From: Candidatus Nanoarchaeia archaeon
GTDB lineage: Archaea > Nanobdellota > Nanobdellia > Woesearchaeales > GW2011-AR4
Direction of reading: 5' to 3'
Assembly (NCBI GenBank): GCA_035293285.1
Contig: DATDOM010000093.1
Location: 36,495 to 100,494, forward strand
DNA: 64,000 bases
The notes beneath the pieces were generated by a model. That model saw only the letters and a program-made list of their open reading frames with translations. It was not told the origin of the DNA and ran no database searches. Numbering within the stretch: the first letter of the stretch is position 1; each line of letters opens with the position of its first letter. Position numbers and translations under genes: made by a program. Shown in pieces: positions 1-39,751 of the stretch.

Positions 1-443
1 TTCTGATTGTCAATTCAAGGTGGTTGTAAAGGTTATGCCTTCCTCTTAATGAACCTGAAAGGTCAGCAGGCTCTACAAGCTCAACACCCTGAGTGTGAAG
101 CACGCTTAGCTCGTTGATTATTTCAGTGTTTTTCAAGTCAGAAAGTTTCTTCACTTCGTCTTTGGCACTCTGCTCGACGTTTTTCTTTACCCTTTCAACA
201 ACTTCTTTTGGAGGGACAGCTATATATTTTATCGGCTTTCCCAATTTCATTATAACAAAACCCTTCTTTTCAAGGGATTCGAGAACATCATAGCTTCTTG
301 ACCTTGGAACATTTGCGATGTCGCTTAATTCCCCTGCGGTAGAAACTCCCCTGCTCAATAGAGCAGTCCATATCTTTACTTCATACAAATTCAGGTTGAA
401 AAACCTTCTCAACTTGCTTAAAAATTCTTCTTTAACTATCATT
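1..443 (-). CDS. TrmB-family transcriptional regulator (partial, C-terminus beyond window start)
   Basis: Reverse-complement translation from ATG at 441-443 is open to position 1. It reads MIVKEEFLSKLRRFFNLNLYEVKIWTALLSRGVSTAGELSDIANVPRSRSYDVLESLEKKGFVI..., a typical TrmB N-terminal wHTH. It is absent from the ORF track only because it runs off the window edge. Confidence 0.6.
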
Positions 444-729
444 TAACTACACCCCCCTTTTATTATTGTACAGGGGATAAAAAACACTACTATTAAAATG
501 TTGTTATTTTTCATCACTCAGCAATAAATTCATTTTAAAATAGTAATGAATTATTATAACTGATGAGTTATTACAGAAAATAGCCAGCTACTATTTAAAT
601 CTTTCTGAGCTATAGGCATTTTTTTGTTATTTTTATAAAAACAAATTTTATGCATTTTTTTTATCAATAACATTTATAAAAGAGCATAGAAACATTTTTT
701 TATCCTAAAAATTTTATTTATTATCTAAA

Positions 730-1464
730 ATGCTAAGTGGAAAAATCGCGCTTGTCACAGGCGCATCAAGGGGAATAGGAAAAGCGATAGCAATAGAGCT
801 TGCAAAACACAACGCCCACGTCATTGTAAATTATAGCAGCAACCAAAAAGATGCCGAAGAGGTGGTTGGTGAAATAAAAAATCTGGGAAAAAATTCTATC
901 TCTATCAAAGCTGATGTCAGTAATCCTGAAGAAGTCAAAAAAATGTTTGGAGAAATACAATCCAGATTCGGAAGACTTGATGTTCTTGTCAACAATGCAG
1001 GAATCACAAAAGACAGGTCACTGTGGAAAATGACTCCGGAAGAATGGAACAGGGTAATAAATGTAAATCTTGACAGCATATACCTTGTAACAAAAAATGC
1101 ACTTTCACTTATGCAAAAAGATTCAAGAATAATAAGCATATCATCAATTGTGGGACTATATGGAAATTTCGGGCAGTGCAATTACGCAGCATCAAAAGCA
1201 GGCATCATAGGCTTTACAAAATCCCTTGCAAAGGAAGTTGCAAAACAGCAGATAACAGTCAACGCAATAGCTCCTGGATTTATCGAAAGTGAAATGACGG
1301 ATAAAATCCCATTTTTGAAGAAGAAAGTGACGCTATGGATGATACCTATGAAGCGCGCAGGACTGCCTGAGGAAATAGCAAATGTAGCTGTATTCCTGGC
1401 ATCAGAAAAATCATCATATATCACTGGACAGACAATAAATGTCAATGGGGGATTTGCTTTTTAG
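730..1464 (+). CDS. fabG: 3-oxoacyl-ACP reductase-like short-chain dehydrogenase (FabG family)
   Basis: Has the TGASRGIG Rossmann motif, NNAG, and the catalytic S...YxxxK (NYAASKAG). About 244 aa, classical SDR. Confidence 0.85.
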   Translation: MLSGKIALVTGASRGIGKAIAIELAKHNAHVIVNYSSNQKDAEEVVGEIKNLGKNSISIKADVSNPEEVKKMFGEIQSRFGRLDVLVNNAGITKDRSLWKMTPEEWNRVINVNLDSIYLVTKNALSLMQKDSRIISISSIVGLYGNFGQCNYAASKAGIIGFTKSLAKEVAKQQITVNAIAPGFIESEMTDKIPFLKKKVTLWMIPMKRAGLPEEIANVAVFLASEKSSYITGQTINVNGGFAF

Positions 1465-1465
1465 A

Positions 1466-3199
1466 ATGAGCCCTGAAACATTATTAAAAAAACCCTGGAA
1501 GCCGACAAGGCCGGTATCCAAAGGAGCATCAGCATATCACGAGGCGGTATGCAACGCTGAATACTACATTGAAATTCTCGACGAACTGGCTAGAATTGCA
1601 ATCCCTGTAATAAAAGACAATGATGTAGTTGTTGATTTTGGAGCGGGCACAGGAGTATCGGCAATGAAGCTAATGTCCAAGATGAAATCAAAAATAAAAC
1701 TTTGCTTGGTTGATAATTCACAGGCGTGGCTTGCAAAGGCATTCGAGATTTTTGAAAACAATCCGGATGTTAGGTGCTTTCTTTTGGAGAAAAAAGGAGA
1801 CACTTACATGACTTTGGCAGAGACTGTAGGTCGGGAAGTTGTTGACCACGTCATATCTGCAAACACACTTCACCTTGTGAGTGACATAGGCTCGGCTTTT
1901 GACGGAATCTACAAAGCACTAAAGCCAAACGGCACTTTCATATTCCAAAGCGGGAACATCACAAGAAGCACAAGGCCTGAAGGTGCATTGATGGTTGATA
2001 ACAGCGTCAAAAGGGTGCATGACATAGCGCTTGACATTGTAAGACGCGACCCTAACTTTGCAAAATACAGAAAAGACCTCGACGAAAAAATAAGGCAGAA
2101 CGAATCTCAGAGAAAATTTGTATTTCCAGAGCCAAGGCCAATAGAGTTCTATGTGGAGTCCCTTGCAAAAGCAGGATTTAAGCATGAGGAAACCCACTTT
2201 AAGCATTTTAAGGTAAAATACAGCGACTGGCTTAATTTCCTAAGAGTAAAAAGGCTTCAGGCAGGAATCCTTCCAGAAATCGGCGGATATGAGCCGTCAC
2301 CAAAGGAAGAAAAAGACAGAGACACGCTTATTACAATTGCAACGAATATGCTTTTTGATGATTTAAAGAAAAACAACAAGCTTTCAGATGATGAAGGTTT
2401 TACAATAGAAATTGCCTATGTCAGCTCAAGAAAATCTGAAAAGCCAGATTATTACAAAGAAAAGCTTGGCCTAAAGGGAAAAATCGCGCTTGTCACAGGC
2501 GCATCAAGGGGAATAGGAAAAGCAATAGCAATAGAGCTTGCAAAAAACGGCGCAAAAGTTATTGTAAATTACAATAAAAACGAAGCTGAGGCAAATGCAG
2601 TGCTTAATGAAGTGAAAAAACTCTCTGACGGCATTTTGATCCAGGCTGACGTTTCTGATTTTGAATCGGCAAAGTCAATGGCATTGAAAATCAAGGAATC
2701 ATTTTCAAAAATAGACATACTTGTCAATAACGCCGGCATAATAACGGACAAGACGATGCAGAACATGTCTTATGAAGAATGGAGAAAAGTAATCCACACA
2801 AACCTTGACAGTGTTTTTAACGTGACAAAGAATATTTTGCCGCTAATCAACGAAAACGGGCGAATAATCAATATAAGCTCCATAGTTGCGCTGGACGGGA
2901 ATTTCGGCCAGTGCAATTACGCAGCATCAAAAGCAGGCATCATAGGCTTTACAAAATCCCTTGCAAAAGAGGTAAGCCGTAAAAAAATAACAGTCAACGC
3001 CGTTGCCCCTGGACTTATAGAAACCGACATACTCGGGCCCATACCTGCAAATGTAAGGCGGGAGTTTAATGCAAGGATTCCAATCGGCAGAAGCGGCGAG
3101 CCACAAGATGTTGCAAATCTCGTAGCATTCCTTTCTTCAGAAATGGCGGGCTATATAACTGCGGAAGTAATTCCAATCAACGGCGGCCTGCATTTTTGA
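1466..3199 (+). CDS. Fusion protein: class I SAM-dependent methyltransferase (N-terminal) + FabG-like SDR (C-terminal)
   Basis: N-terminal half has the VVDFGAGTGVSAMKL SAM-binding motif. C-terminal 240 aa has TGASRGIGKAIAIELAK...NYAASKAGIIGFTKSLAKE, near-identical to the upstream fabG. Likely start is ATG 1466, 2 nt after the fabG stop; ORF-track start 1439 overlaps fabG. Confidence 0.7.
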   Translation: MSPETLLKKPWKPTRPVSKGASAYHEAVCNAEYYIEILDELARIAIPVIKDNDVVVDFGAGTGVSAMKLMSKMKSKIKLCLVDNSQAWLAKAFEIFENNPDVRCFLLEKKGDTYMTLAETVGREVVDHVISANTLHLVSDIGSAFDGIYKALKPNGTFIFQSGNITRSTRPEGALMVDNSVKRVHDIALDIVRRDPNFAKYRKDLDEKIRQNESQRKFVFPEPRPIEFYVESLAKAGFKHEETHFKHFKVKYSDWLNFLRVKRLQAGILPEIGGYEPSPKEEKDRDTLITIATNMLFDDLKKNNKLSDDEGFTIEIAYVSSRKSEKPDYYKEKLGLKGKIALVTGASRGIGKAIAIELAKNGAKVIVNYNKNEAEANAVLNEVKKLSDGILIQADVSDFESAKSMALKIKESFSKIDILVNNAGIITDKTMQNMSYEEWRKVIHTNLDSVFNVTKNILPLINENGRIINISSIVALDGNFGQCNYAASKAGIIGFTKSLAKEVSRKKITVNAVAPGLIETDILGPIPANVRREFNARIPIGRSGEPQDVANLVAFLSSEMAGYITAEVIPINGGLHF

Positions 3200-3228
3200 A
3201 ACAGGTAATTTTAAATACTAAATAAGCC

Positions 3229-3269
3229 TTCTAAGAACTATTGCGCAGTGCGCAAGATTGTTTTTAGAA
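3229..3269. promoter_or_regulatory. Composite palindrome centred on TTGCGCAgTGCGCAA, upstream of the TRAM-domain gene
   Basis: Perfect 7-bp arms TTGCGCA / TGCGCAA (3241-3255), flanked by a second imperfect inverted pair ttctaagaac / gtttttagaa. Sits 45-85 nt upstream of the 3313 start. Confidence 0.35.
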
Positions 3270-3312
3270 TGACGAGTTCTAAAAAGCTTAAATAACATAG
3301 AGGTAAATAAAT

Positions 3313-3699
3313 ATGAGACAAGATAGAGGAGGAAGGCGTGATTTTGGCGCCAGCAGAAGTTTTGCCCCTGTAAAGGTCGGCGACGAGATTGATGTGAAAA
3401 TTGAGGCCGTAGGCGAAAAAGGAGACGGAATCGGAAAAGTAAGCGGTTTTGTCATATTCGTGCCAGGTACTGAAGTAGGGAAAACCTACAAAATAAGGAT
3501 CACAAGAGTGTTACAAAAAGTAGCTTTTGCCGAAGTAATCGGAGAAGGAAGTTCTGATTCAAGCGCAGAGCAGCCGCAGTCAGATGACTCGTCTGAATCG
3601 CAGGAACCTTCAGAAGGTTCACAAGAATCAGACCAGCAAGAACCGTCAGACTCTGACTCAGACAACTTTGGAGAAGAAGGCGAAGAAGAAACACAGTAA
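3313..3699 (+). CDS. TRAM-domain protein with acidic Ser/Glu/Asp-rich C-terminal tail
   Basis: VKVGDEIDVKIEAVGEKGDGIGKVSGFVIFVPGTEVGKTYKIRITRV matches stand-alone archaeal TRAM-domain proteins. It is followed by a low-complexity SDSSAEQPQSDDSSESQE... tail. Confidence 0.7.
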   Translation: MRQDRGGRRDFGASRSFAPVKVGDEIDVKIEAVGEKGDGIGKVSGFVIFVPGTEVGKTYKIRITRVLQKVAFAEVIGEGSSDSSAEQPQSDDSSESQEPSEGSQESDQQEPSDSDSDNFGEEGEEETQ

Positions 3700-3732
3700 T
3701 TATTTTTTTATTTTATAATTTTATTTTTTCTC

Positions 3733-4263
3733 ATGAGGCTTTTCATCGCAATTGACTTTGACAGCATTAATGGCTACTTAAAAGAGATTCAATCGCAGCT
3801 TTTGGAAATCTCAAATCTTTCCCTTGTAACTTCTTTTCACCTAACGCTGAAATTTCTTGGAGAAGTGGAAGAGGAAAATTACAGCTTAATAAAATCAAAG
3901 CTAAAGGAAATAAAATTTGAGAAGTTTAATATTTTTCTTGACAAAGTCGGTGTTTTTGAGACAAGAGGCGAGCCGGGAGTCGTATTTGTCAGCATAAAGC
4001 AGCAAATCAATCTTTTAGAGCTCCAAAAATCCATAGAATCCGCACTAAGCGGTTTTAGCAGTGATTTTGACTTTACGGCCCATGTCACCTTGGCAAGAGC
4101 CAGGAAATTGGACGACAAAAAACAGTTCATCGGAAAAATAATAAAAATACAATTCAAAAATCTATCAGTAACGGTTGACAAATTTGAATTAATGAAAAGC
4201 GAGCTTACAAGAAAAGGACCAGCCTACACAGTAATTGAACCTTTCAAGTGCAGCAATTTATAG
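3733..4263 (+). CDS. thpR: RNA 2',3'-cyclic phosphodiesterase (ThpR/LigT, 2H phosphoesterase)
   Basis: Two H-x-T-x motifs (HLTLKF and HVTLAR) in a ~176-aa protein, typical of the 2H/LigT family. Confidence 0.7.
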   Translation: MRLFIAIDFDSINGYLKEIQSQLLEISNLSLVTSFHLTLKFLGEVEEENYSLIKSKLKEIKFEKFNIFLDKVGVFETRGEPGVVFVSIKQQINLLELQKSIESALSGFSSDFDFTAHVTLARARKLDDKKQFIGKIIKIQFKNLSVTVDKFELMKSELTRKGPAYTVIEPFKCSNL

Positions 4264-4304
4264 GTCACCCAAACATTTTTATTAAATAGTCCTTAAATTA
4301 AGTT

Positions 4305-4952
4305 ATGGTCTACCCTATATGGAACACACTAGTCTGGTCCTGGTATCAGCTTTGGGTCAAGAAAATAGAGGGCATCGAAAACATTCCGCAAAAAGGAGCT
4401 TTTATCGTAGTGCTGAACCATTCAAGCTTTTATGACATAGCACTATCACACGGAATCATAGCAAAAAGGCTTAACAGAAAAATACACCCTTTTGTGAATT
4501 CAAAGTTCTGGAAAAACATAATTGCAAAAAATATTCTTGACTGCGGAGAATGCATTCCTGTTTTTGTCTCAGGAGATAAAAACTCAAGGGACAAAAACGA
4601 AAAATCAATGAAATTGGCGCTAAAATACCTTAAAAAAGGTGACATAATCTCAATATTTCCGGAAGGAAAAAGAAGTCCTGACGGAGTTTTGGGCAAGGCT
4701 TATAACGGCGCTGCCAAACTTTCTATTGCTTCAGGTGCACCTATCTTGCCTGTAGGAATTATAGAATCATATAAAGTGCTCCCAAAAGGCGCACTTTTTC
4801 CAAGATTTTTAAGATGCCGGGTGAAAATAGGAAAACCAGTATACCCTTCAGACTTTAAACTCAAAAGAAAGAAAGAAAAATTAGCTGATGAACTGACGAG
4901 GGTTTTTATGGGAGAAATCGCAAAAATGATAGGACAAAAATACATTTATTGA
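4305..4952 (+). CDS. plsC: Lysophospholipid/1-acyl-sn-glycerol-3-phosphate acyltransferase family protein (PlsC/LPLAT)
   Basis: HxxxxD motif (NHSSFYD) and FPEGKRS motif of the LPLAT superfamily. Confidence 0.7.
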   Translation: MVYPIWNTLVWSWYQLWVKKIEGIENIPQKGAFIVVLNHSSFYDIALSHGIIAKRLNRKIHPFVNSKFWKNIIAKNILDCGECIPVFVSGDKNSRDKNEKSMKLALKYLKKGDIISIFPEGKRSPDGVLGKAYNGAAKLSIASGAPILPVGIIESYKVLPKGALFPRFLRCRVKIGKPVYPSDFKLKRKKEKLADELTRVFMGEIAKMIGQKYIY

Positions 4953-4956
4953 AAAA

Positions 4957-5589
4957 ATGGTATACTTTTTTGCCAAAAAATTCCTGGTTCCGGTATTCCG
5001 GCTATGGATTAAGGACATAACTGGAGTTGAGAATATTTTGGAAAACTCTCAATTGATAATTGCCGCAAACCATTCAAGCTATGTTGACCACCTTTTTCTT
5101 TGCTCAATAGTGATTCCGAAAACCAACAAAAAACTGCATTTTCTTGCAAAAAAAGAGCACTTTGACAGCCTGGCACAGCGGCTTTGGCACAATTACGCCG
5201 GCGCGATACCCCTAGACAGGCAGGCGGGCGGAAAAGAGGCTCTTAAGCAGGCGATAAAGGAGCTAAAACAAAAAAAAATAATTGGTATTTATCCCGAGGG
5301 CACAAGAACACTTGATGGCAAAATGCAGAGAGCAAAGACTGGAGTTGCAAGGCTTGCGCTGCTTTCCAAAGCGCCAGTAGTTCCTGTCGGCCTTATAGGG
5401 ACTTTTGAAATAATGCCGAAAGGAAAATATCTCCCAAGGCTAAAAAGTGCAAAAGTCAATATCGGAAAGCCTATCACATTTGAAAAATATTACGGGAAAC
5501 GAATCACAAAAAAACTTTTACGAGAGGTTACAAACATAATAATGAAAGAGATTGCAAGGCTTTCAAAACAGAAATACAATTTTGACTGA
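4957..5589 (+). CDS. plsC: Second PlsC/LPLAT-family acyltransferase (tandem paralog)
   Basis: NHSSYVDH and YPEGTRT motifs. Same architecture as the upstream gene. Confidence 0.7.
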   Translation: MVYFFAKKFLVPVFRLWIKDITGVENILENSQLIIAANHSSYVDHLFLCSIVIPKTNKKLHFLAKKEHFDSLAQRLWHNYAGAIPLDRQAGGKEALKQAIKELKQKKIIGIYPEGTRTLDGKMQRAKTGVARLALLSKAPVVPVGLIGTFEIMPKGKYLPRLKSAKVNIGKPITFEKYYGKRITKKLLREVTNIIMKEIARLSKQKYNFD

Positions 5590-5635
5590 TATTTTCAAGT
5601 AAAACTTTATATACATTAAATTTTTAATCCAAAAA

Positions 5636-6610
5636 ATGAAAATAGCAATTCTTGGGGCAGGGAGCTGGGGAACTGCGCTTGCGGCAACAGTCTCGCAAAA
5701 CAACGAAGTCAGCCTTTGGGCAAGAAGAAAAGGGCTTTGTGATGAAATAAACAGGACGAGGAAGAACAAGACTTATCTTGACGGAATTACGCTTCCATCC
5801 AATTTTTTTGCAAAAAATTCCATAAAAGACACTGTTGAGGGCTCGCAGATTATAATAAGCGTGATTCCAAGTGAATACTTAAGAAATGTGATGCAGTCGC
5901 TAAAGCCGTTTGTTTCAAATCAAATTATAATCAGCGCAACAAAAGGCATTGAGCATTCCAGCGGCAAGAGGATGTCGCAAGTTATTGAGGATGAGCTTGG
6001 CAAAAGAGTGAAGGTTGCAGCACTTTCAGGCCCAAACCACGCCGAAGAAGTTGCAAGAAAAATGCCGACGGCAAGCGTGATTGCATGCAGGGACAAGAAA
6101 ACTGCACTGGCATGCTCAAAAGCCATCAGCACGGATTCCTTCAAGGTTTACCCTCTTGATGACATTGCAGGAGTTGAAACCTGCGGCGCTTTGAAAAACA
6201 TAACTGCAATAGCAACAGGCGTATGTGACGGCTTTGGATTTGGGGACAATGCGCGCTCGTCAATAATGACAATGGGCCTTGTTGAAATGAACACTTTTGG
6301 AAGGGCTTTTGGGGCAAAAAGAGGCACAGTTTACGGCCTTGCAGGCGTTGGAGACCTAATAGCAACCTGCGTAAGCAAGCATTCAAGAAACAGGTATGTC
6401 GGCGAGCAGCTTGCAAAAGGAAAATCAATTTCCCAAATCAAGACTGAAATGAAGGGGATGGTTGCAGAAGGAATTCCCACAACAAAGGCAGTTTATGAAT
6501 ATGCCAAAAAGCATAACCTTGAAATGCCGCTTGCAAAGCAGGCGTATGAAGTTATTTATAACGGAAAACCGATCAAGACGGCAATAAAGGACCTTCTTGA
6601 CCTGGTTTAA
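5636..6610 (+). CDS. gpsA: NAD(P)H-dependent sn-glycerol-3-phosphate dehydrogenase (bacterial-type GpsA)
   Basis: MKIAILGAGSWGTALA N-terminus, GPNHAEEV, GVGDLIATC; 324 aa. Classic GpsA signature. Confidence 0.85.
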   Translation: MKIAILGAGSWGTALAATVSQNNEVSLWARRKGLCDEINRTRKNKTYLDGITLPSNFFAKNSIKDTVEGSQIIISVIPSEYLRNVMQSLKPFVSNQIIISATKGIEHSSGKRMSQVIEDELGKRVKVAALSGPNHAEEVARKMPTASVIACRDKKTALACSKAISTDSFKVYPLDDIAGVETCGALKNITAIATGVCDGFGFGDNARSSIMTMGLVEMNTFGRAFGAKRGTVYGLAGVGDLIATCVSKHSRNRYVGEQLAKGKSISQIKTEMKGMVAEGIPTTKAVYEYAKKHNLEMPLAKQAYEVIYNGKPIKTAIKDLLDLV

Positions 6611-6622
6611 TCAAAAAGAAAA

Positions 6623-7219
6623 TCACTCTTCTGTGAAGTCTTCAAGCTTGTTTGGCAGTTCTTCGTTGTCCTTTAGAGTGCCTTTAATTTTCATATATTC
6701 CTTTGTAAGGATGAAAAACAACAATCCAAGCGATTTCTTTCCCTTGTTGTTGCAAGGCACTACCAAATCAATATAGTTTGACTGGTTGTTTGTGTCGCAT
6801 AATGCAATTACAGGAATTCCACTTTTTACAGCGTCCATTACTGCATTCCTGTCAGGCCAGGCGTCAACTACCATTACAATCTTTGCTTCTGTGTATTCCT
6901 CAAGCTGAGGGTTTGTAAGCATTCCGGGAGGATATCTTCCTGCAATTATCCTAATCCCCGTCAATTTTCCGAAAAGCTCAACAGGCTTCCAGCCGTTCTC
7001 CCTTCTGCATATTATCAGTATGTCTTTTGGGTCGTACTGCGATAAAAATGATGCCGCGATAGTAATCCTTTCATCAATTTTCTGAAGATTCAGAACACTT
7101 AGGCCGTCAGGCCTTGTCTTGTAGATGAACTGCTCCATGTATTTTGTCCTGAATTTTGTGCCGATGTGTATTCCTGACTTAAGATAAGTATCCCTTGCCA
7201 CCAAAAATTTTTCTTCCAT
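6623..7219 (-). CDS. rps2: 30S ribosomal protein uS2 (archaeal/eukaryal type)
   Basis: ~198 aa. HIGTKFRTKYMEQFIYKTRPDGLSVLNLQK and ALCDTNNQSNYIDLVVPCNNKGKKSLGLLFFIL resemble archaeal S2 / eukaryotic SA-p40, not bacterial uS2. Confidence 0.9.
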   Translation of the reverse strand: MEEKFLVARDTYLKSGIHIGTKFRTKYMEQFIYKTRPDGLSVLNLQKIDERITIAASFLSQYDPKDILIICRRENGWKPVELFGKLTGIRIIAGRYPPGMLTNPQLEEYTEAKIVMVVDAWPDRNAVMDAVKSGIPVIALCDTNNQSNYIDLVVPCNNKGKKSLGLLFFILTKEYMKIKGTLKDNEELPNKLEDFTEE

Positions 7220-9524: not shown

Positions 9525-11000
9525 ATGCCTAATCACAATGTCTCAAGGGCGATGTCAACACAGCATCCTGACAACGTCAGCAACCCGTTCTTCACACACA
9601 ATTCTGAAATTGCAGGAGATGACGAGATAAAAGAGGCTTTTTACACTTATTCGCACATGCACTGCAAAGAACAGCTTTGGGACTGTGAGGGAAAGGAAGT
9701 TGACAATTATGTTGTGAAGAAGCTTTTTGCAAATTACGAGCCATATTTTAGAAAACACAAGCTCGGAAAAGACCTATTCTTGACTTTGAGAGTTCCAAAC
9801 CCCGATGTTGAAAAGAATGAAGCCAAAATCTTGCTTGAAACTCTTGAAAGCATTCCGAGAAACTTTGATGCCGCAAAACTTTTCTATGGGGAAGACATCG
9901 CGCCGATTTTTGAAATTGCGCTTCCAATGGCGTCCGATTACAGGCAATTGACAAGGATATCCCAATACTATAAAGAACATGTTGTCGGCAAGCAGCACAG
10001 CAAGCTTGGAAATGACATAAAAATTTCTGAATGGATTGGAAAATTCCAGCCTGAGAGCCTGAGGATGATTCCATTAATTGAGGAAAAAGAATACATCCTA
10101 AATCCTGAAAAAATCGTGGAAAAATATGTTTTGGGAGAGAAAATAAAGGAATATCAGAGGGTGTGGCTTGCAAGAAGCGACCCTGCACTTAACTACGGAA
10201 ATCTTGCAACAGTGCTTATGCTCAAAGTTTCACTTCAGAAAATAAGAAAGCTGCAAAAAAAGCTCTCAATAGACATGCTTCCTATTTTAGGATGCGGCAG
10301 CGCGCCGTTTCGTGGAAACTTCAAGCCGACAAATATAAAAAACTGCATAGCAGGCTATCCAAGCGTGCACACATATACTTTACAGTCAGCTTTCAAGTAT
10401 GACTACAACATAAAGGATGTAAATAATGCAGTTGAAGTGCTCAACAATTCGAGGCCGTCAGAGCCTGTTTCAGTTAACGAAAAACTTTGCATTCCAATAA
10501 TCGAGAAGCTTACAAAAGAATACCAAAAACAAATCAAGATACTTGTACCAATGATCAATGAGATGGTTCCTTATATCCCTTCAAGAAGGAAAAGAAAGCT
10601 GCACATAGGCCTTTTTGGGTATTCGAGAAACATGGGAGGAGTTAAGCTGCCAAGGGCGATAACATTTTGCGCATCACTTTATTCATACGGGCTTCCGCCT
10701 GAACTTATATCACTTGATTGCCTTAACCAAAAAGAACTTGATTTTATCAGGACATTCTATACCAACTTTGATAATGACTTAAGGGATTCGCTTACATTCC
10801 TAAACGAAGATAACCTTGATTTGTTCCCTCTCGAAATTTCAAAAAAAATCAAAAAAATAAGCAAGATGACTGACTTTGAGCCAAACGAGGCGCACAAGAA
10901 AATTACATCAATAATTGCACAGGATTTAAGCAAAAGAGACCACAAGCTGATTTCAGAAAACGTGACAAGGGCAGGATTTGTAAGGGGATTTTTGGGATAA
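9525..11000 (+). CDS. ppcA: Archaeal-type phosphoenolpyruvate carboxylase
   Basis: N-terminal RAMSTQHPDN motif and ~490-aa size are characteristic of atPEPC. Confidence 0.85.
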   Translation: MPNHNVSRAMSTQHPDNVSNPFFTHNSEIAGDDEIKEAFYTYSHMHCKEQLWDCEGKEVDNYVVKKLFANYEPYFRKHKLGKDLFLTLRVPNPDVEKNEAKILLETLESIPRNFDAAKLFYGEDIAPIFEIALPMASDYRQLTRISQYYKEHVVGKQHSKLGNDIKISEWIGKFQPESLRMIPLIEEKEYILNPEKIVEKYVLGEKIKEYQRVWLARSDPALNYGNLATVLMLKVSLQKIRKLQKKLSIDMLPILGCGSAPFRGNFKPTNIKNCIAGYPSVHTYTLQSAFKYDYNIKDVNNAVEVLNNSRPSEPVSVNEKLCIPIIEKLTKEYQKQIKILVPMINEMVPYIPSRRKRKLHIGLFGYSRNMGGVKLPRAITFCASLYSYGLPPELISLDCLNQKELDFIRTFYTNFDNDLRDSLTFLNEDNLDLFPLEISKKIKKISKMTDFEPNEAHKKITSIIAQDLSKRDHKLISENVTRAGFVRGFLG

Positions 11001-12440: not shown

Positions 12441-13181
12441 CTATTTCAGATTCTTAAAAGACTTGCTTATTTTTTCATTCCAGAATTCAGGAAGGCTGAA
12501 TGACAGCAACCCTTCAAATTCATCATCCCAGACATAAGTGTATTTTTCCTTGTCATCTTTGTTCTTGAACATTTTTGATGCTTTTTCATACATTTCCTTT
12601 ATTGCCTTTCTTTCAAAAGTTGATTGTAATAGGCTTGGCTCTTTAAACATCAAAGTGTCTGCCAGCCTTAATACATTGACGTCAACCAATGCCGAGTTTT
12701 GGGTTATGATGATTAATGTGAGGTTTTTATGCCTCGCAATTGCCATGAACTTGCTTAATTCCTTGTTCGGGCTTTTCATTGAATCTCGTGACGAGAACAA
12801 AATTGCGCCTTCGTCAATCAATGCTATTGAATTGTTTGGCACGCTTTCAATATTTTCTGACTTTTTTATGCTCCACGGAAGCTTTGCCTCTTCAAAACCT
12901 AAGCAATAGCACTTTCTTTTTGATTTTTTCATGAATAACTCAATTAATTTCATCCCAAAGGCAGTCTTTCCTGAGCCTCTTTTGCCTACTATTAGAATTA
13001 TTAGGCTTGTGTTTAGCAGCTTTTTGTAGAATGTTTCATAGTCTCCTTTCTTTGTTTCTTCAACTTCAAAAGGCTGATAATTAGTGTTTTTCTCTGTTTT
13101 TCTGAAAATGTCCAATATTCCCATGAAAATGACTATATCTGATTGGTATAAAAAGGATTTGGTGAATTTGACTTGTGTCAC
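12441..13181 (-). CDS. AAA+-like P-loop ATPase (IstB/DnaC-like minimal ATPase), hypothetical
   Basis: Walker A VGKRGSGKT, Walker B IALIDEGA ~45 aa later, sensor-1-like LIIITQN. No adjacent transposase. Confidence 0.55.
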   Translation of the reverse strand: MTQVKFTKSFLYQSDIVIFMGILDIFRKTEKNTNYQPFEVEETKKGDYETFYKKLLNTSLIILIVGKRGSGKTAFGMKLIELFMKKSKRKCYCLGFEEAKLPWSIKKSENIESVPNNSIALIDEGAILFSSRDSMKSPNKELSKFMAIARHKNLTLIIITQNSALVDVNVLRLADTLMFKEPSLLQSTFERKAIKEMYEKASKMFKNKDDKEKYTYVWDDEFEGLLSFSLPEFWNEKISKSFKNLK

Positions 13182-13227
13182 AAAAATAAGGGAAAGTTTA
13201 TTAAGAAAATATTAAAGTTATGATATA

Positions 13228-13590
13228 GTGGATAACGATACAACTATAGAAGAATTGAAAAATAAAGTAAAAAAATTCTGTGAAGAAAGAGACTGGGATC
13301 AATATCACAATGCAAAAGATTTAGCTATAGGTATTATAACAGAATCTTCTGAATTACTCGAACATTTTAGATTTAAATCAGAAAAAGAGATTGAAGGGTA
13401 TTTTGAAATTCCAGAAAAGAAAAAAGAAATTTCTGAAGAATTATCTGATATATTATATTTTGTTTTGAGACTATCACAAAAATATAATATAGACTTAACA
13501 ACGGAATTGAGTAAAAAAATTCAAAAAAACAAAGAAAAATACCCTGTTGAAAAATCTAGAGGGTCTAATAAAAAATATGATGAGATTTAA
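13228..13590 (+). CDS. MazG-like nucleotide pyrophosphohydrolase (all-alpha NTP-PPase, DCTPP1/YpjD-like)
   Basis: ELKNKVKKFCEERDWDQYHNAKDLAIGIITESSELLEHFRF ... EELSDILYFVLRLSQKYNIDL matches the MazG-like NTP-PPase EExxE...ExxD pattern; 120 aa. Confidence 0.8.
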   Translation: MDNDTTIEELKNKVKKFCEERDWDQYHNAKDLAIGIITESSELLEHFRFKSEKEIEGYFEIPEKKKEISEELSDILYFVLRLSQKYNIDLTTELSKKIQKNKEKYPVEKSRGSNKKYDEI

Positions 13591-13592
13591 AA

Positions 13593-15587
13593 ATGCTGAA
13601 TAGACTAACAATTTATAACGCACCGAAAAAGCAATTTTTTAGTGATGTTTTAGTTAATAAATTTGCAGATATAATGCAAGAAAATTTTTCAAATTCTTAT
13701 GGTCAAAAAGTAGGAGATTCCGAGTTTAATTCTTGGATAGATACTGGAAAAGTAATTAAAAATTTAATTGAGCTTGGCGGTTTAGAAAATATTTATGTTT
13801 CATTTGAATATCAGATTCCTTATAGGCAACAAAGAATTGATTGTTTATTATTTGGAAAAAATAAAAATGGAAAGGGTACAGTCATACATATTGAGATGAA
13901 ACAATGGAAACAAGTAGAAGCATTAGAATGTGAAGGGAATTTTATTGAAACTTATACTGGAAGAGATAAACGAAAGGTCGCACACCCTTCACAACAAGTT
14001 CAAGGATACCATAATTATTTAATTGGATTTGTAGAAATATTTGAAGAAAATGAAACATGTTTATTTGGTTATGCTTATTGTCCAAATTACGATAAAAAAG
14101 AAGGAGAAGGGTTGTTTGACGCAAAATATAGTGAAGTTGTTAATAAGTTTCCTATTTACACAAAAAAGGATATAGAAAAATTGGCAGATAGATTGAAAGA
14201 ATTATTGTGCCAGGAAGACGGTTTCGACATATTTAATAAATTTATGAACTCTCCCATAAGACCTTCGAGAAAACTTTTGGATAGTGCATCAAAAGTTATT
14301 AAACAAGAATCTGATTTTAATTTAATCGATGATCAAATATATGCAAGAAATGTGATTATTGATAAAATAAAAAGAGGAGAAACAAAAAACGAAAAAAATG
14401 TAGTCATCGTAAAGGGTGGACCTGGTACTGGAAAAACAGTAATTGCCTTACATATTTTAGCAGAATTTTCAGGACATAAAGATAAAAAATACAAAATCTT
14501 TTTTTCATCAAGGTCAAAACCATTAATTGAAGCAATAAAATATAAAATGGAAAGGGGGCAAAAAGCTGGAGAAGTTAATGCAAAAATACTTTTTACAAGT
14601 TTGCATCCATATTCCCCAACAAGGATATCTGAATGTGATTTAGACATTTTAATTGTTGATGAAGCACACAGAATTGGGGAAAAATCAGACCATAGATTTA
14701 CTAAAAAAGAGTATAGAACTAATATGCCTCAAGTTGAACAATTAATCAGATGTGCAAAAACATCTATTTTTTTTATTGATGATAAGCAAGTTATTAGGGG
14801 GGCAGAAGTAGGAAATACCCAATTAATCAAAAGAACCGCTGAGAGTCTGGGAAGAAACATTGAAGAATGGGAATTGACTTCGCAGTTTAGATGTAATGGG
14901 TCGGATAATTATTTGGATTGGTTAGAATCTATATTAGGGTACACAACTGAAAAACGAATTCTTAAAAAAGAGGATAATTTTGATTTTCAAATTATAGATT
15001 CTCCAGATAGACTTTACGAAATAATAAAAGGAAAAAATTCCTTGAAGAAAATGAGTGCAAGAATTGTTGCAGGCTATTGTTGGCCTTGGTCTACAAAATT
15101 AAATGCTAACGGGGAGTTAGCAAACGATGTTAAAATTGGAAACTTTGAAATGCCTTGGGAGACTCACGGAGACATTAAGCCTCCAGAAGGTTATGTTAAG
15201 TGGTATGAATGGGCATATAAACCTGAAGGAATTAAACAAGTTGGATGTATTTATACTGCGCAGGGTTTTGAGTTTGATTATATAGGGGTAATTATAGGTT
15301 CTGACCTAAAATATGATAAACTAAGAGATTGTTTAGTTGGAAATATTTTGGGTACAAAAGACCCAATTCTTAAGAGAAGCAAAGATAGATTTGATGAATA
15401 TGTAAGAAATATTTATCGAGTTTTAATGTCTAGGGGAATGAAAGGATGCTTCGTCTATTTTGTTGATAGGGAAGTTGAGAATTATTTTAAGTCAAGAATC
15501 CATTATGTAGACTCTTTTAATGATTATATCTCTCAATCATCTGATAAATTGGTCATAGCAGAAAAACAAAAAGAATACAAAAAATAA
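13593..15587 (+). CDS. PD-(D/E)xK nuclease domain + DUF2075/Schlafen-like SF1 helicase fusion protein
   Basis: N-terminus has IDCLLF...VIHIEMKQW (D...ExK). Then Walker A GGPGTGKT, DEAH-type Walker B LIVDEAHRI, FFIDDKQ, QFRCNGSDNYLDWL and C-terminal YTAQGFEFDYIGVIIG, all DUF2075 hallmarks. Starts 3 nt after the MazG-like gene. Confidence 0.8.
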   Translation: MLNRLTIYNAPKKQFFSDVLVNKFADIMQENFSNSYGQKVGDSEFNSWIDTGKVIKNLIELGGLENIYVSFEYQIPYRQQRIDCLLFGKNKNGKGTVIHIEMKQWKQVEALECEGNFIETYTGRDKRKVAHPSQQVQGYHNYLIGFVEIFEENETCLFGYAYCPNYDKKEGEGLFDAKYSEVVNKFPIYTKKDIEKLADRLKELLCQEDGFDIFNKFMNSPIRPSRKLLDSASKVIKQESDFNLIDDQIYARNVIIDKIKRGETKNEKNVVIVKGGPGTGKTVIALHILAEFSGHKDKKYKIFFSSRSKPLIEAIKYKMERGQKAGEVNAKILFTSLHPYSPTRISECDLDILIVDEAHRIGEKSDHRFTKKEYRTNMPQVEQLIRCAKTSIFFIDDKQVIRGAEVGNTQLIKRTAESLGRNIEEWELTSQFRCNGSDNYLDWLESILGYTTEKRILKKEDNFDFQIIDSPDRLYEIIKGKNSLKKMSARIVAGYCWPWSTKLNANGELANDVKIGNFEMPWETHGDIKPPEGYVKWYEWAYKPEGIKQVGCIYTAQGFEFDYIGVIIGSDLKYDKLRDCLVGNILGTKDPILKRSKDRFDEYVRNIYRVLMSRGMKGCFVYFVDREVENYFKSRIHYVDSFNDYISQSSDKLVIAEKQKEYKK

Positions 15588-15590
15588 ACT

Positions 15591-16040
15591 TCAATTCTTA
15601 TGCTTAATTTCAATTAAAAACATTCTTCCGTCTGTTGAAAGCAGTTTGATATCAACCAAGTCTTCTTTATGCAGATTGTTAGTCAGTTCTTTTGGAAACC
15701 TAAAAAAGAACGTTTTACCATCATAATTCATGTTTCTTTCTACTGTTATTGTATTTTCATTTAGTAATTGTTTAACTATGAGGAATTTTTCAAATTTCTT
15801 GGCCTGTTCAAAATCAACATATTCTTTTTTGCACGTCTTGCACTGCCAAACATCATAAGCAAACTCAATATGACCATAAGATACTTTTTTGCCTGTCAAA
15901 ACAGTCTTTTTCCCATGGCATTGAAAAGGCCCTTTAAACGAGCTTTCTTCTAACTTGATATTGGCTTCTTGCCCCATATCTCTTGTTTTAAGATTATAAA
16001 ACGGCTCTTTTTCAAGTTCTTGCTGATATTTGGATTTCAT
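15591..16040 (-). CDS. YgiT-type zinc-finger protein (antitoxin-like)
   Basis: CHGKK...(n)...CKTCKK C2C2 arrangement. Overlaps the upstream DUF4258-like gene by 4 nt. Confidence 0.45.
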   Translation of the reverse strand: MKSKYQQELEKEPFYNLKTRDMGQEANIKLEESSFKGPFQCHGKKTVLTGKKVSYGHIEFAYDVWQCKTCKKEYVDFEQAKKFEKFLIVKQLLNENTITVERNMNYDGKTFFFRFPKELTNNLHKEDLVDIKLLSTDGRMFLIEIKHKN

Positions 16041-16297
16041 TTTTTATTATACCTGTTTATTTGCGGTTCTGATGATGGATAAGCCGTTATGACATTTGCA
16101 ATTGGCTCATCATATTTGAATATCATAGTTATGTAACGAACATAGTGTGTTATTGATATGTAAATTTTATCTTCTTGCCTGATAATTTTAGGCTTTCCGT
16201 GTTTAATTGCCTCCCAGAGTTCATCTATTCCTATGCCATGTTTGTATAATATTTTCTCCTGAACGTCCGGACTTATATGCAATTTTAAGTTTTTCAT
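16037..16297 (-). CDS. DUF4258-like small protein (toxin-like partner of the YgiT-ZnF protein)
   Basis: 86 aa, HISPDVQEKILYKHGIGIDELWEAIKHGKPKIIRQEDKIYI resembles the DUF4258 consensus. 4-nt overlap with the downstream ZnF gene, as in TA operons. Confidence 0.4.
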   Translation of the reverse strand: MKNLKLHISPDVQEKILYKHGIGIDELWEAIKHGKPKIIRQEDKIYISITHYVRYITMIFKYDEPIANVITAYPSSEPQINRYNKK

Positions 16298-16320
16298 GGC
16301 AATAAATTTTGTACTTCATA

Positions 16321-16351
16321 TAGTACGCTGAATAGTACGTTTATATAAACC
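16321..16351 (-). promoter_or_regulatory. Promoter/operator region of the YgiT-ZnF/DUF4258 operon with TATA-like box and ACGTAC repeats
   Basis: Minus-strand reading tttatataaacgtactattcagcgtacta: a TATA-like box followed by two (A/G)CGTACT units directly upstream of the 16297 start. Confidence 0.35.
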
Positions 16352-17010
16352 TATCTGACAATTAATGAATTATAACTATGGTTTCCAACAATCAAATGAT
16401 CAAGAACTTTTATTCCAATTAAATCTCCAGTTTCAACAAGCACCCTATTAACTCTGTAGTCTTCATCTGAAGGTTCAACATTTCCTGATGGATGATTATG
16501 AACCAATATAATAGAATTAGCAGAGTTCTTTATTGCTTCCTTAAACACCTCCCTAGGATGAACCAATGAAGAATTCAATGTCCCGATTGAAATAACTTCA
16601 TCTTTGATTATTTTGTTTTTGGAATCAAGAAACACTGCAATAAAATGCTCTTTTTTCAAATCCTTGAGCTTTTCAATATAGTATGAAGCGATATCTGAAG
16701 GGTTTTTAATCACTTTCTCGCAGATTTTGCCTGAATTGACTCTTTTGCTTAGCTCAAATGCAGCAATGATTTTAGCCCCTTTGGCTAAGCCTATGCCTTT
16801 TATTTTCATTAGTTCCTGTAAAGACAGGGAATTAAGGTTTTCAAGCCCAAAACTGGAAATTAGCCTGTTTGATAAATCCAGGACATTTTCTCCTTTGGTG
16901 CCTTTTTCAAGAATCAAAGCAAGCAATTCAGGATCACTAAGGAAGCTAGAATTACTGGATTTTAATCTCTCCCTCGGCCTTTGTTCTAAGGCAATATCTT
17001 TCATCAGCAT
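16351..17010 (-). CDS. radC: RadC-like JAB/MPN-domain protein
   Basis: HhH region (LMKIKGIGLAKGAKI) plus the JAMM motif HNHPSG...D. Confidence 0.85.
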   Translation of the reverse strand: MLMKDIALEQRPRERLKSSNSSFLSDPELLALILEKGTKGENVLDLSNRLISSFGLENLNSLSLQELMKIKGIGLAKGAKIIAAFELSKRVNSGKICEKVIKNPSDIASYYIEKLKDLKKEHFIAVFLDSKNKIIKDEVISIGTLNSSLVHPREVFKEAIKNSANSIILVHNHPSGNVEPSDEDYRVNRVLVETGDLIGIKVLDHLIVGNHSYNSLIVR

Positions 17011-17077
17011 TCTAGTAAGAACATCATAAAACTATTAATAATTGACACTTATAAATTGTATAAAAATACAAAATATC

Positions 17078-17500
17078 CTAATAAAATTCCTCCAAAAACT
17101 CCTTTGGGCTTAGAATCCTTACACCTTTATAATTTTTCAAAGAAAGCAAGTGATTATCTCCGGATATTATAATTGATTTAATTGATAAAGCACAATTTAT
17201 GAATTTATTATCTTCTTCATCATTCAAAACTGCATTTTCATCAAAAGAAGATTTGGTCAAAACTGATTTATCAATAAGATTATCCATAATGAATTTTTTG
17301 TAATCAGCACCAATATATTTTTTGAACAACGGCCTTTCTATAACTTTTTTAATTTCATCTAAAATCTCATATGTTACATAGTTGACAATCTCATCTTTTA
17401 ACAATAACTCGAAGATTTTTGCGGGATTGCCATCACTTGAAATGGCAGCAGATATTATGATATTTGTATCTAAAACTACTTTAACCTTTTCTTGACTCAT
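17078..17500 (-). CDS. PIN-domain protein (VapC-like toxin)
   Basis: VVLDTNIIISA N-terminal acidic motif; 140 aa. Overlaps the upstream antitoxin gene. Confidence 0.65.
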   Translation of the reverse strand: MSQEKVKVVLDTNIIISAAISSDGNPAKIFELLLKDEIVNYVTYEILDEIKKVIERPLFKKYIGADYKKFIMDNLIDKSVLTKSSFDENAVLNDEEDNKFINCALSIKSIIISGDNHLLSLKNYKGVRILSPKEFLEEFY

Positions 17501-17726
17501 TTATCTCTTCCCCAATCTTTTCAGGAGACAATTTTTTTGTATTGTCCCTGAATTTTTTGAATTCCTTAACCAACGAAGTTGTATCCACTTTTTTCATAAC
17601 TATTGTGTTTTTATCAAAGGCACTAACTGCGAATATTGTATTTTCAAGAGCTCCTACTTCTTCCCTTATTTCCTTAGGTATTATGATTTGCCCTCTTTGC
17701 GACATTTTAGCTGTTTCTATGTTCAT
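17481..17726 (-). CDS. AbrB/SpoVT/MazE-family antitoxin
   Basis: MSQRGQIIIPKEIREEVG swapped-hairpin motif; 81 aa. Overlaps the PIN gene by ~20 nt. Confidence 0.6.
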   Translation of the reverse strand: MNIETAKMSQRGQIIIPKEIREEVGALENTIFAVSAFDKNTIVMKKVDTTSLVKEFKKFRDNTKKLSPEKIGEEINESRKG

Positions 17727-17742
17727 TTTGAATCACCAGTTA

Positions 17743-17782
17743 AAAGTACGTTTTACGTATTTATAAACTTTACGTAATATTG
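17743..17782 (-). promoter_or_regulatory. Promoter/operator region of the AbrB-PIN operon with TATA-like box flanked by ACGTAAA repeats
   Basis: Minus-strand reading caatattacgtaaagtttataaatacgtaaaacgtacttt: tttataaa flanked by ACGTAAA units, 17-55 nt upstream of the antitoxin start at 17726. Shares the ACGTA(A/C) unit with the other TA promoter. Confidence 0.35.
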
Positions 17783-17849
17783 TAAACTTATCACTATTGG
17801 TAAGCTATTTGATTTAATATTAATACTAAATTCTTATAATTTCTATAAA

Positions 17850-18215
17850 TTAAACATTCTTTGCAGAAACGGCAATACTAGTATTGGCACCAAAATCCTG
17901 TTTATTTTTTATTCCCAAATTTCTTTCAACCTGTTCATCCACCACAGCCCAGTAAAACTCTATAAACTTCTGAACTTTTTTATTTTTTATGTTAAGCCTG
18001 TACATTTGCGCCCTGCCTACTTTTCTTACAAGAGTTATCCACTTATCTTTCAAAAGCTCCTTTTTTAGCTGCTTGACTGAAGGATAGCTTACATTTGAGA
18101 ACTTGGCAATATCTTTAAGTGAATAATCAAAATCCTGAGAAACTATCAGAAAATCAAGTACCTTGTTTTTCGGACTGCTCCCTTCTATTTCCAAAAATGC
18201 GGATTTTTCTGTCAT
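17850..18215 (-). CDS. Winged-helix transcriptional regulator (MarR/ArsR-like)
   Basis: LKDIAKFSNVSYPSVKQ...LVRKVGRAQMYRLN helix-turn-helix plus wing. Confidence 0.45.
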   Translation of the reverse strand: MTEKSAFLEIEGSSPKNKVLDFLIVSQDFDYSLKDIAKFSNVSYPSVKQLKKELLKDKWITLVRKVGRAQMYRLNIKNKKVQKFIEFYWAVVDEQVERNLGIKNKQDFGANTSIAVSAKNV

Positions 18216-18696: not shown

Positions 18697-18813
18697 ATTG
18701 GACGGTCATAGGGGCCTGGTTCACCCGATCCCATTCCGAACTCGGCAGTTAAGAAAGCCTCCGTTTCCAATTGTACTGCACTTACGTGCGGGAACCTGGG
18801 AAAGCTGTCCACC
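18697..18813 (+). rRNA. rrf: 5S ribosomal RNA
   Basis: GGTCATAG...CCGATCCCATTCCGAACTCGGCAGTTAAG...GTACTGC...GGGAA matches the universal 5S loop/helix motifs. Helix I forms between 5' TGGACGG (18699-18705) and 3' CTGTCCA (18805-18811). An oligo-T run follows. Ends are approximate to +/-5 nt. Confidence 0.85.
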
Positions 18814-28100: not shown

Positions 28101-28113
28101 TTAAGTTTCCCTA

Positions 28114-28419: not shown

Positions 28420-28422
28420 CCC

Positions 28423-39722: not shown

Positions 39723-39751
39723 ATTATCACAGGACCAATATTTGAAAAAAA

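Follow-up and report, generated by a model that had tools for sequence, protein, structure and literature searches.

The window analysed here is a stretch of 64,000 nucleotides (nt) from a Candidatus Nanoarchaeia archaeon (assembly GCA_035293285.1, contig DATDOM010000093.1, positions 36,495 to 100,494 of the forward strand), and near its start two adjacent plsC genes are followed directly by gpsA. Genes were called from a listing of open reading frames (ORFs) combined with Pfam and NCBIfam profile scans. The first plsC gene (4305..4952, plus strand) encodes PlsC-A, a divergent acyltransferase of the lysophospholipid acyltransferase (LPLAT)/1-acylglycerol-3-phosphate acyltransferase (AGPAT) fold, and the second (4957..5589, plus strand) encodes PlsC-B, a canonical LPLAT; the two score 72.1 and 91.1 bits against PF01553, where the gathering score is 23. 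The gpsA gene (5636..6610, plus strand) encodes a bacterial-type NAD(P)H-dependent sn-glycerol-3-phosphate (G3P) dehydrogenase, GpsA, that matches PF01210 (181 bits), PF07479 (189 bits), PF20618 (74.5 bits) and NF000942 (397 bits, cutoff 257). Gaps of 4 nt and 46 nt separate plsC-A from plsC-B and plsC-B from gpsA, and a TATA-like element, TTTATATA, lies at 5606, ahead of gpsA. Convergent with gpsA and 12 nt away from it is the gene for ribosomal protein uS2 of the archaeal/eukaryotic type (6623..7219, minus strand; TIGR01012 242 bits, cutoff 211.5).

The original prediction, drawn from the letters of this stretch and a list of its ORFs, was that five genes (two fabG, two plsC and gpsA) form a bacterial-type ester-phospholipid gene set in an archaeal genomic context. 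All five were recovered on the plus strand where it had put them, by ORF, Pfam and NCBIfam evidence, and profile matches confirmed the archaeal neighbours that it named, uS2, archaeal-type phosphoenolpyruvate carboxylase (atPEPC), TRAM and TrmB, to which NFACT can be added. Its description of the set as one compact colinear block holds for plsC-A, plsC-B and gpsA, which alone are tightly packed, but not for the FabG pair, which the TRAM and LigT genes part from the plsC genes.

Conservation and origin of the plsC-plsC-gpsA block

The window derives from a Woesearchaeota archaeon (DPANN; Nanoarchaeota/Nanoarchaeia in GTDB). When each GTDB species, represented by a single genome, was scanned for GpsA, 29 loci came up with identities of 50-67%, in metagenome-assembled genomes (MAGs) of Woesearchaeota, Nanoarchaeia or Nanoarchaeota or in obviously mislabelled ones, and bacterial matches in the same scan start only at 47% identity or less. 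Ten of the loci that we compared (L005, L006, L010, L011, L013, L015, L020, L023, L025 and L030) come from third-party annotation MAGs in the European Nucleotide Archive (ENA) that are titled "uncultured Methanosarcinales archaeon". Their synteny is Woesearchaeal and their GpsA identity is 53-67%, and the taxon label looks wrong.

In about 28 Woesearchaeal species plsC-plsC-gpsA converges on archaeal uS2 and is usually preceded by RadA. The recurring gene order is an RPA-like gene, a small ORF, RadA, sometimes a HAD-IB phosphatase, plsC, plsC, sometimes a patatin, gpsA, convergent uS2, LigT, TRAM and FabG/methyltransferase-FabG. RadA and the RPA-like gene upstream and archaeal uS2 downstream of the operon are found in 25-30 loci. 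Archaeal uS2 follows gpsA in 30 of 30 loci, at least two plsC genes stand directly before gpsA in 27 of the 28 loci with upstream sequence, and about 22 of 27 loci have a gap of 1-2 nt between the plsC genes. Two further genes occur at the operon in some relatives and are not in the window: a patatin-like phospholipase between plsC and gpsA in three loci (L007, at 6107-6724, L008 and L011), and a HAD-IB phosphatase between RadA and plsC in five, including L004 (5819-6490).

Several observations bear on the possibility that the bacterial-like genes are present through chimeric assembly or a mis-binned bacterial contig, to which we give next to no credence. The exact GpsA sequence is found on a 167-kb ENA contig and on two shorter contigs of other assemblies, and the DNA of these two contigs matches that of the window at 100% identity throughout plsC-gpsA-uS2, the gpsA/uS2 junction included. 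Archaeal information-processing genes are physically linked to the block (uS2 here, RadA and RPA in relatives), TrmB and atPEPC are also archaeal neighbours, and the gene order with its archaeal flanks is shared by about 28 species. The GC content of plsC-A, plsC-B and gpsA, overall and at third codon positions (GC3), is the same as that of neighbouring genes. We found nothing in favour of an artefact. One contig assigned to the candidate phyla radiation (CPR), GenBank LBZW01000039.1 (L031, "Candidatus Nomurabacteria bacterium GW2011_GWA2_40_9"), does carry plsC-plsC-gpsA, with an archaeal RadA and an archaeal uS2 that is 80% identical to that of the window; because of these two genes we regard it as a Woesearchaeal contig mis-binned into a CPR genome, so that the error runs the opposite way. 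The binning check that the original prediction called for thus rules out a chimera or bacterial mis-bin, by the junction in the two other assemblies and the archaeal flanks in the relatives, and its central observation, intact bacterial-type genes in a truly archaeal genome, stands.

GpsA has diverged in step with the ribosomal protein beside it. Over 27 loci, the pairwise identity values for GpsA correlate strongly with those for uS2 (Spearman coefficient 0.84, Mantel p = 0.001); the corresponding value is 0.67 for PlsC-A, and PlsC-B follows uS2 only weakly (0.33). Across the clade, identity falls to a minimum of 64% for uS2 and 50% for GpsA. Neither adjacent plsC genes nor the order plsC-plsC-gpsA was found in any of the 32 bacterial loci with the closest GpsA. 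For PlsC-B, an exhaustive search of representatives with cluster and context look-up returned Woesearchaeal or unnamed metagenome proteins as the nearest relatives.

The co-divergence with uS2, the native GC content and the absence of the gene order from the 32 bacterial loci together suggest one old acquisition followed by vertical inheritance. At the level of sequence comparison, this points to a module gained from Bacteria once, early in the clade. The individual genes are likely to be of bacterial origin, and the operon was apparently built and long maintained inside Woesearchaeota. For the same three reasons the suggestion of a "transferred operon" in the original prediction, taken as a compact unit of five genes, is not borne out. 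Nor did the GpsA and PlsC trees that it proposed for finding the donor lineage identify one. In a midpoint-rooted neighbor-joining tree of 62 loci, Woesearchaeal GpsA forms one clade with no resolved or supported bacterial sister; the bootstrap value for its monophyly is only 66/100 because an outlier, L030, falls outside the clade. A neighbor-joining tree of about 160 LPLATs is star-like.

Enzymes of the block and the FabG pair

GpsA aligns end to end with the Thermotoga maritima enzyme (1Z82; E = 4e-73), and alignment to 1Z82 and 3K96 shows that the motifs GAGSWG, KGIE, GALKN, GDLIATC and SRNR are present. The Rossmann GxGxxG is thus conserved, and so are the lysine of KGIE, the Lys-Asn of GALKN, the Asp and Thr of GDL..T and the arginine of SRNR, which are substrate and catalytic residues in the structures of GPD1 and LmGPDH. 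GpsA most likely forms sn-G3P. The GpsA of the euryarchaeon Archaeoglobus fulgidus (1TXG) belongs to the same enzyme family and likewise comes from an archaeon, but it is far more distant from the window protein (E = 4e-32) than the Thermotoga enzyme is. Judged by these alignments, the Woesearchaeal gpsA is a bacterial-type acquisition separate from euryarchaeal GpsA.

The two acyltransferases differ in how closely they keep to the family pattern. PlsC-B has all four motifs complete (I, NHSSYVD; II, AIPLDR; III, YPEGTRT; IV, APVVPVG), and the four (NHxSYxD, IP[LIV]DR, PEGTR and PV[VI]P) are kept in every one of about 28 species. PlsC-A has motif I (NHSSFYD), motif III in the relaxed form EGKR (FPEGKRS) and motif IV (APILPVG); its motif II is taken up below. 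The His and Asp columns of HX4D are invariant in the LPLAT alignment, and a few PlsC-A orthologues in the loci have HX4E. Loss of the catalytic motifs, which the original prediction had named, in combination with a full archaeal ether-lipid pathway, as a finding that would speak against it, is confined to PlsC-A, where the Asp-Arg of motif II is missing; GpsA and PlsC-B keep all of theirs.

The best solved relative of both paralogues is Thermotoga PlsC (5KYM), a bona fide lysophosphatidic acid (LPA) acyltransferase, which PlsC-B matches with E = 6e-16. The AlphaFold model of PlsC-A (predicted local distance difference test, pLDDT, 90) has the AGPAT fold, with 5KYM as its top Foldseek match (template-modelling score 0.66), followed by the G3P acyltransferases 1IUQ, 1K30 and 8IA1, with plastid enzymes among them, human GPAT1 and PatA. 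Neither paralogue has a hydrophobic segment (hydropathy does not exceed 1.5 over any 19 residues), and both are very basic, with an isoelectric point of about 10; for PlsC-A, with no transmembrane helix, the value is 9.9. These properties fit peripheral membrane binding as predicted from the protein sequences. PlsC-A and PlsC-B are 34% identical (E = 3e-44) and have in common an MVYPI N-terminus and an IAKL..QxYNY C-terminus, which suggests that a duplication in this lineage gave rise to the second LPLAT.

The FabG pair consists of a 3-oxoacyl reductase of the classical short-chain dehydrogenase/reductase (SDR) type (730..1464, plus strand; PF13561/PF00106) and, overlapping it by 26 nt, a gene (1439..3199, plus strand) for a 586-residue protein in which a class-I S-adenosylmethionine (SAM) methyltransferase of about 325 residues is fused to a C-terminal FabG-like SDR. 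The stand-alone FabG has the SDR motifs TGASRGIG, NNAG and S...YAASK and scores 312.8 bits against TIGR01830 (cutoff 297.75) and 265.7 bits against the acetoacetyl-CoA reductase model TIGR01829, below the cutoff of that model. The fused ketoreductase, which is 57% identical to the upstream FabG, stays below the TIGR01830 cutoff at 279.7 bits and scores almost equally against TIGR01829 (271.9 bits).

The methyltransferase domain (1439-2473) has 354 homologues at E <= 1e-5 among 5.8 billion proteins, and all those listed are at least 55% identical to it; the family appears from these matches to be restricted to Woesearchaeota. Its members are either stand-alone (321-347 residues) or fused (567-599 residues), and are always beside or joined to a FabG-like reductase, which constitutes a "Rosetta-stone" link. 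The AlphaFold model has a pLDDT of 89.9, and Foldseek matches the methyltransferase fold to generic small-molecule class-I enzymes: phosphoethanolamine N-methyltransferase, RebM, BioC, fatty-acid O-methyltransferase and UmaA score alike. The best NCBIfam match of the domain is BioC at 31 bits, far below the cutoff, and a PDB sequence search and Pfam also gave generic matches only.

In most relatives the FabG pair lies beyond uS2 on the opposite strand. The pair is colinear with plsC-plsC-gpsA only in this genome, because the plsC-plsC-gpsA-uS2 block is inverted here relative to the common arrangement. Synteny alone was rejected as proof of a functional link between FabG and plsC/gpsA, since RadA, uS2, TRAM and LigT are equally syntenic. 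The neighbors of FabG in relatives are a family III CoA-transferase, an archaeal-type thiolase (NF004720, 364 bits) and DUF362, with a short-chain enoyl-CoA hydratase in addition in L066, and these CoA-type neighbors indicate that the pair is probably CoA-linked rather than part of a type II fatty acid synthase (FAS II). No acpP or fabD/F/H/Z/I gene was found in the window, in the 10 kb on either side of it (84 kb read in all, of the 167-kb contig) or in about 30 related loci. We conclude from gene content and arrangement that the pair was not ancestrally part of the plsC-gpsA operon and would be a CoA-linked unit for 3-oxoacyl reduction and methylation; most likely it is a separate unit, ancestrally placed divergently, that reduces 3-oxoacyl-CoA substrates. 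The "ester-phospholipid gene set" of the original prediction thus shrinks to its three-gene core, and the FabG genes, with no neighbors of the ACP (acyl carrier protein) or Fab kind in the 84 kb and CoA-type neighbors in relatives, drop out of it.

Dibrova and colleagues reportedly proposed in 2014 an ACP-independent archaeal fatty-acid metabolism that combines an archaeal thiolase with homologues of FabG, MaoC and enoyl reductase. As in that proposal, the FabG pair of relatives adjoins an archaeal-type thiolase, together with the CoA-transferase, DUF362 and, in L066, the hydratase. The window differs in that these partners are absent from it and in the fusion to a lineage-specific SAM methyltransferase, which is not part of the proposal. 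A fermentative acetoacetyl-CoA route for the FabG unit is equally possible.

Proposed function and its alternatives

The explanation that we favor, at no better than even odds, is that plsC-A, plsC-B and gpsA are a working operon, passed on vertically, that leads from dihydroxyacetone phosphate (DHAP) through G3P to (lyso)phosphatidic acid. GpsA would reduce DHAP to G3P with NAD(P)H, and the two short, peripheral LPLATs would transfer acyl groups from acyl thioesters to G3P and then to 1-acyl-G3P; this would yield lysophosphatidic acid and, from it, phosphatidic acid, on which ester-linked glycerolipids are built. As no PlsB or PlsX/PlsY was found in the region read, we infer that the two acylations would be divided between the paralogues, each catalysing one of them. 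PlsC-B, as the canonical protein, would be the surer G3P/LPA enzyme, and PlsC-A, with its remodelled acceptor-phosphate site, may act on a related acceptor whose phosphate is bound differently or whose head group differs. The acyl chains could be obtained by scavenging, from a host or from the surroundings, or by a CoA-linked route, rather than from a classical FAS II encoded nearby, and the product might serve as a bulk membrane lipid. In favor of this function are the operon structure, the conservation of motifs, the fold neighbors of PlsC-A among G3P acyltransferases (GPATs) and LPA acyltransferases (LPAATs), and the insertions at the operon of patatin (three loci) and HAD-IB phosphatase (five loci).

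The closest known system is the bacterial phosphatidic-acid pathway of GpsA, PlsB or PlsX/PlsY, and PlsC, as represented by Thermotoga maritima 1Z82 and 5KYM. The window GpsA is a full-length, motif-complete homologue, and both acyltransferases have the AGPAT fold and the HX4D catalytic dyad of 5KYM. Unlike that pathway, the window has two short PlsC paralogues in place of PlsB or PlsX/PlsY, the order plsC-plsC-gpsA is not seen beside the closest bacterial gpsA, and the host is an archaeon.

Several points weigh against this function. The conserved neighborhood also holds the housekeeping genes RadA, uS2, TRAM and LigT, and these are equally conserved, so part of the synteny is phylogenetic inertia. 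Motif II of PlsC-A, IPVFVSGDKNSRDKN, has no aligned Asp-Arg, in which it departs from the bacterial enzymes; IPVFV and a Lys-rich insert of about 10 residues stand in its place, and the change (IPV[FY]V plus the insert) is conserved over about 22 orthologues. We take the Asp-Arg of motif II to be what binds the acceptor phosphate in characterised GPATs and LPAATs, and PlsC-A may therefore use a different acceptor. Neither paralogue reaches the cutoff of TIGR00530 (102.95), PlsC-A scoring 59.2 bits and PlsC-B 84.1, so that "LPLAT family", which is also the name given by NCBI, is the safe name for both. Both proteins begin about 45 residues later than Thermotoga PlsC and have no counterpart to its two-helix N-terminal membrane anchor: residues 18-20 correspond to residues 61-65 of 5KYM, and in the model the core is preceded by one short amphipathic helix (H4-17). 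In the 84 kb there are no acyl-donor genes (ACP, AcpS, FabD/H/F/Z/I, Acc, FadD), and no PlsX, PlsY, PlsB, CdsA or head-group enzymes. G3P has uses in archaea other than as a lipid backbone, in the head group of archaetidylglycerol and in glycerol metabolism. Such uses are also given by Coleman et al. (PMC6431249), who consider the archaeal homologues unlikely to serve membrane synthesis.

The absence of acyl-chain synthesis and PlsB/PlsXY genes from the 84 kb would also follow if the LPLATs re-acylated (lyso)phospholipids taken from a bacterial host, as in a Lands cycle, with GpsA supplying G3P for head groups of the phosphatidylglycerol type. Salvage of this kind, which we think unlikely, would suit the altered acceptor site of PlsC-A and the patatin phospholipase within the operon of three relatives. 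For DPANN archaea in general, hosts are held to be the source of lipids (PMC6349945); a proposal for Woesearchaeia is that they modify the lipids of host bacteria (PMC11868695), and some may be episymbionts of bacteria (PMC8204110). However, gpsA is tightly and almost universally coupled to the acyltransferase genes, as would be expected with G3P itself as the acyl acceptor, patatin is found in just three of about 28 loci, and the motif set of PlsC-B is complete and of the G3P/LPA type. It is less probable still, in our estimation, that the products are hybrid lipids, in which a G3P backbone would carry, for example, an isoprenoid chain at one position, made by the bacterial methylerythritol phosphate (MEP) pathway and attached by a UbiA/GGGPS-type prenyltransferase, and at the other an acyl ester added by an LPLAT. 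Marine Group II and Lokiarchaeota have been hypothesised to have hybrid lipids, with analogous proposals for Loki- and Thorarchaeota (PMC6737245). In one Woesearchaeota clade, the MEP pathway and a UbiA prenyltransferase occur widely and are sometimes co-located with a bacterial G3P dehydrogenase (PMC8204110), and an unusual lyso-lipid acceptor would fit the divergent site of PlsC-A. Against this, there is no prenyltransferase or MEP gene in the window, the 10 kb on either side or about 30 related loci, and the conserved acyltransferases are two, not one.

The block might also be no lipid module at all: GpsA could work in central carbon and redox metabolism at the level of DHAP and G3P, the LPLATs could acylate compounds other than glycerolipids, and the adjacency could reflect slow rearrangement in a young clade. 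The unrelated housekeeping genes of the conserved neighborhood, the scores of both LPLATs below the TIGR00530 cutoff, and the non-lipid roles of G3P dehydrogenase in archaea, with the doubts of the authors of PMC6431249 about a membrane function, are all compatible with this. The clade is not young, however, as uS2 identity falls to 64% and GpsA identity to 50%, and plsC-plsC-gpsA has stayed contiguous with 1-nt spacing while the FabG block was rearranged relative to it. The closest relatives of the acyltransferases in sequence and fold are G3P/LPA acyltransferases, and the lipid-related patatin insertions lie exactly at the operon. On these grounds we regard a role outside lipid metabolism as quite improbable.

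The presence of GpsA, PlsC and FabG in Woesearchaeota and other DPANN archaea is already published. Yokobori (2016, PMC5059525) reported GpsA in Woesearchaeota; Coleman (2019, PMC6431249) found GpsA and PlsC in DPANN, Marine Groups II and III and Asgard archaea, patchily distributed, derived from Bacteria and with no genome holding all homologues; Castelle (2021, PMC8204110) described a bacterial G3P dehydrogenase and fatty-acid genes near MEP genes within a Woesearchaeota clade that comprises 52 genomes; and Zhang (2024, PMC10936187) listed FabG, FabI and FabZ in DPANN. A Black Sea study (2025, PMC11868695) suggested that Woesearchaeia may make bacterial-like lipids or modify those taken from hosts. 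These reports concern the same phenomenon in the same lineage as the window, and the earlier papers list gene presence. The window proteins themselves are in NCBI as [quoted passage not shown]. The operon-level detail appears to be undescribed: in the open literature, which our search covered, we found no description of the conserved plsC-plsC-gpsA operon, its co-divergence with uS2, the split into paralogues A and B, or the methyltransferase-ketoreductase fusion.

The wider interest of the operon lies in the "lipid divide" between the glycerol-1-phosphate (G1P) isoprenoid ethers of Archaea and the G3P acyl esters of Bacteria and Eukarya, a key element of models for eukaryogenesis and the evolution of early cells. 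Previous surveys found archaeal GpsA and PlsC to be patchy and probably irrelevant to membranes, whereas the Woesearchaeota genes are not patchy. A tight operon, catalytic motifs intact over about 28 species and co-divergence with uS2 are the signature of a pathway in use, and this detail strengthens the case for function in a phenomenon that had already been reported. Three small, soluble-expressible proteins make the proposed operon directly testable. If it is active, some "bacterial" ester lipids could come, unrecognised, from these archaea, which are abundant in groundwater and the sea, and nature would offer an archaeon that lives with membranes of bacterial or mixed type. Archaeal ether-lipid and MEP pathway genes were not found in the 84 kb. 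A bolder proposal, which we hold to be doubtful, is that an entire order-level clade of DPANN archaea, the Woesearchaeales, has crossed the lipid divide. Its membrane would then consist wholly or largely of sn-G3P diacyl esters, made by a minimal, self-assembled pathway of GpsA and two anchor-less LPLATs that replace PlsB/PlsXY and PlsC. Scavenging from bacterial hosts would supply the acyl chains, or else a CoA-dependent route of thiolase, ketoreductase (with methyltransferase) and hydratase would, and the canonical G1P ether pathway would be absent.

Neighboring genes and other features of the contig

The window begins within a gene for a TrmB-family transcription regulator (1..442, minus strand; PF01978), an archaeal marker that is cut by the window start and is complete in the overlapping locus L001 (3989-4807, minus strand, corresponding to window positions -376..442). 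Between it and fabG lies an intergenic region (443..729, plus strand) of 22% GC with two TATA-box-like elements, TTTATAAA, at 632 and 673, which we read from these elements as a putative archaeal promoter. The two genes that part the FabG pair from the plsC genes have housekeeping roles. One encodes a TRAM-domain RNA chaperone (3313..3699, plus strand; PF01938, NF053605 75 bits) with an acidic C-terminal tail of about 50 residues rich in Ser, Asp and Glu, and the other a LigT/ThpR RNA 2',3'-cyclic phosphodiesterase (3733..4263, plus strand; PF02834, TIGR02258 121 bits, cutoff 65.7). Beyond uS2 are genes for a Fap7-like kinase, an aspartate aminotransferase, atPEPC (9525..11000; TIGR02751 573 bits) and NFACT. 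A tRNA scan found nothing, and an Rfam scan found a 5S rRNA gene alone (18698-18813).

Adjoining the 5S rRNA gene is an island of low GC content (12441-18215; about 31% compared with about 39% elsewhere), probably one with a defence or mobile character, that encodes an nSTAND3/Zot-like NTPase, a MazG-like protein, a Schlafen-group-3-like helicase, RadC and a PIN-domain protein. Metabolic and glycan genes are interspersed with two ORFs that resemble LAGLIDADG homing endonucleases and stand free, and with an HNH ORF (24829-25851, minus strand; 57690-58877, plus strand; 58864-59265, minus strand); there is no obvious intron or intein host gene. Transketolase is split (27153-29268, minus strand) into an N-terminal ORF that binds thiamine pyrophosphate (TPP) and an ORF with the pyrimidine-binding and C-terminal parts, about 320 nt apart, and a transaldolase gene lies nearby (24163-24813).

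A very large surface-glycan cluster extends from 19740 to 64000 and continues into the adjoining locus L067, to 10 kb beyond the window. It includes a GT9 heptosyltransferase of the bacterial lipopolysaccharide type (56478-57494), a Wzx/MurJ-like flippase (29518-30975), two large TPP enzymes (37908-42304) and several ORFs of 400-850 residues with no Pfam match, and thus adds further bacterial-looking envelope genes to this archaeon. Upstream of the window on the same contig (L068, 321-8859), an ORF of 2004 residues is followed by four small ORFs (158, 338, 162 and 161 residues), none with a Pfam match, and these may encode a DPANN surface or attachment apparatus.

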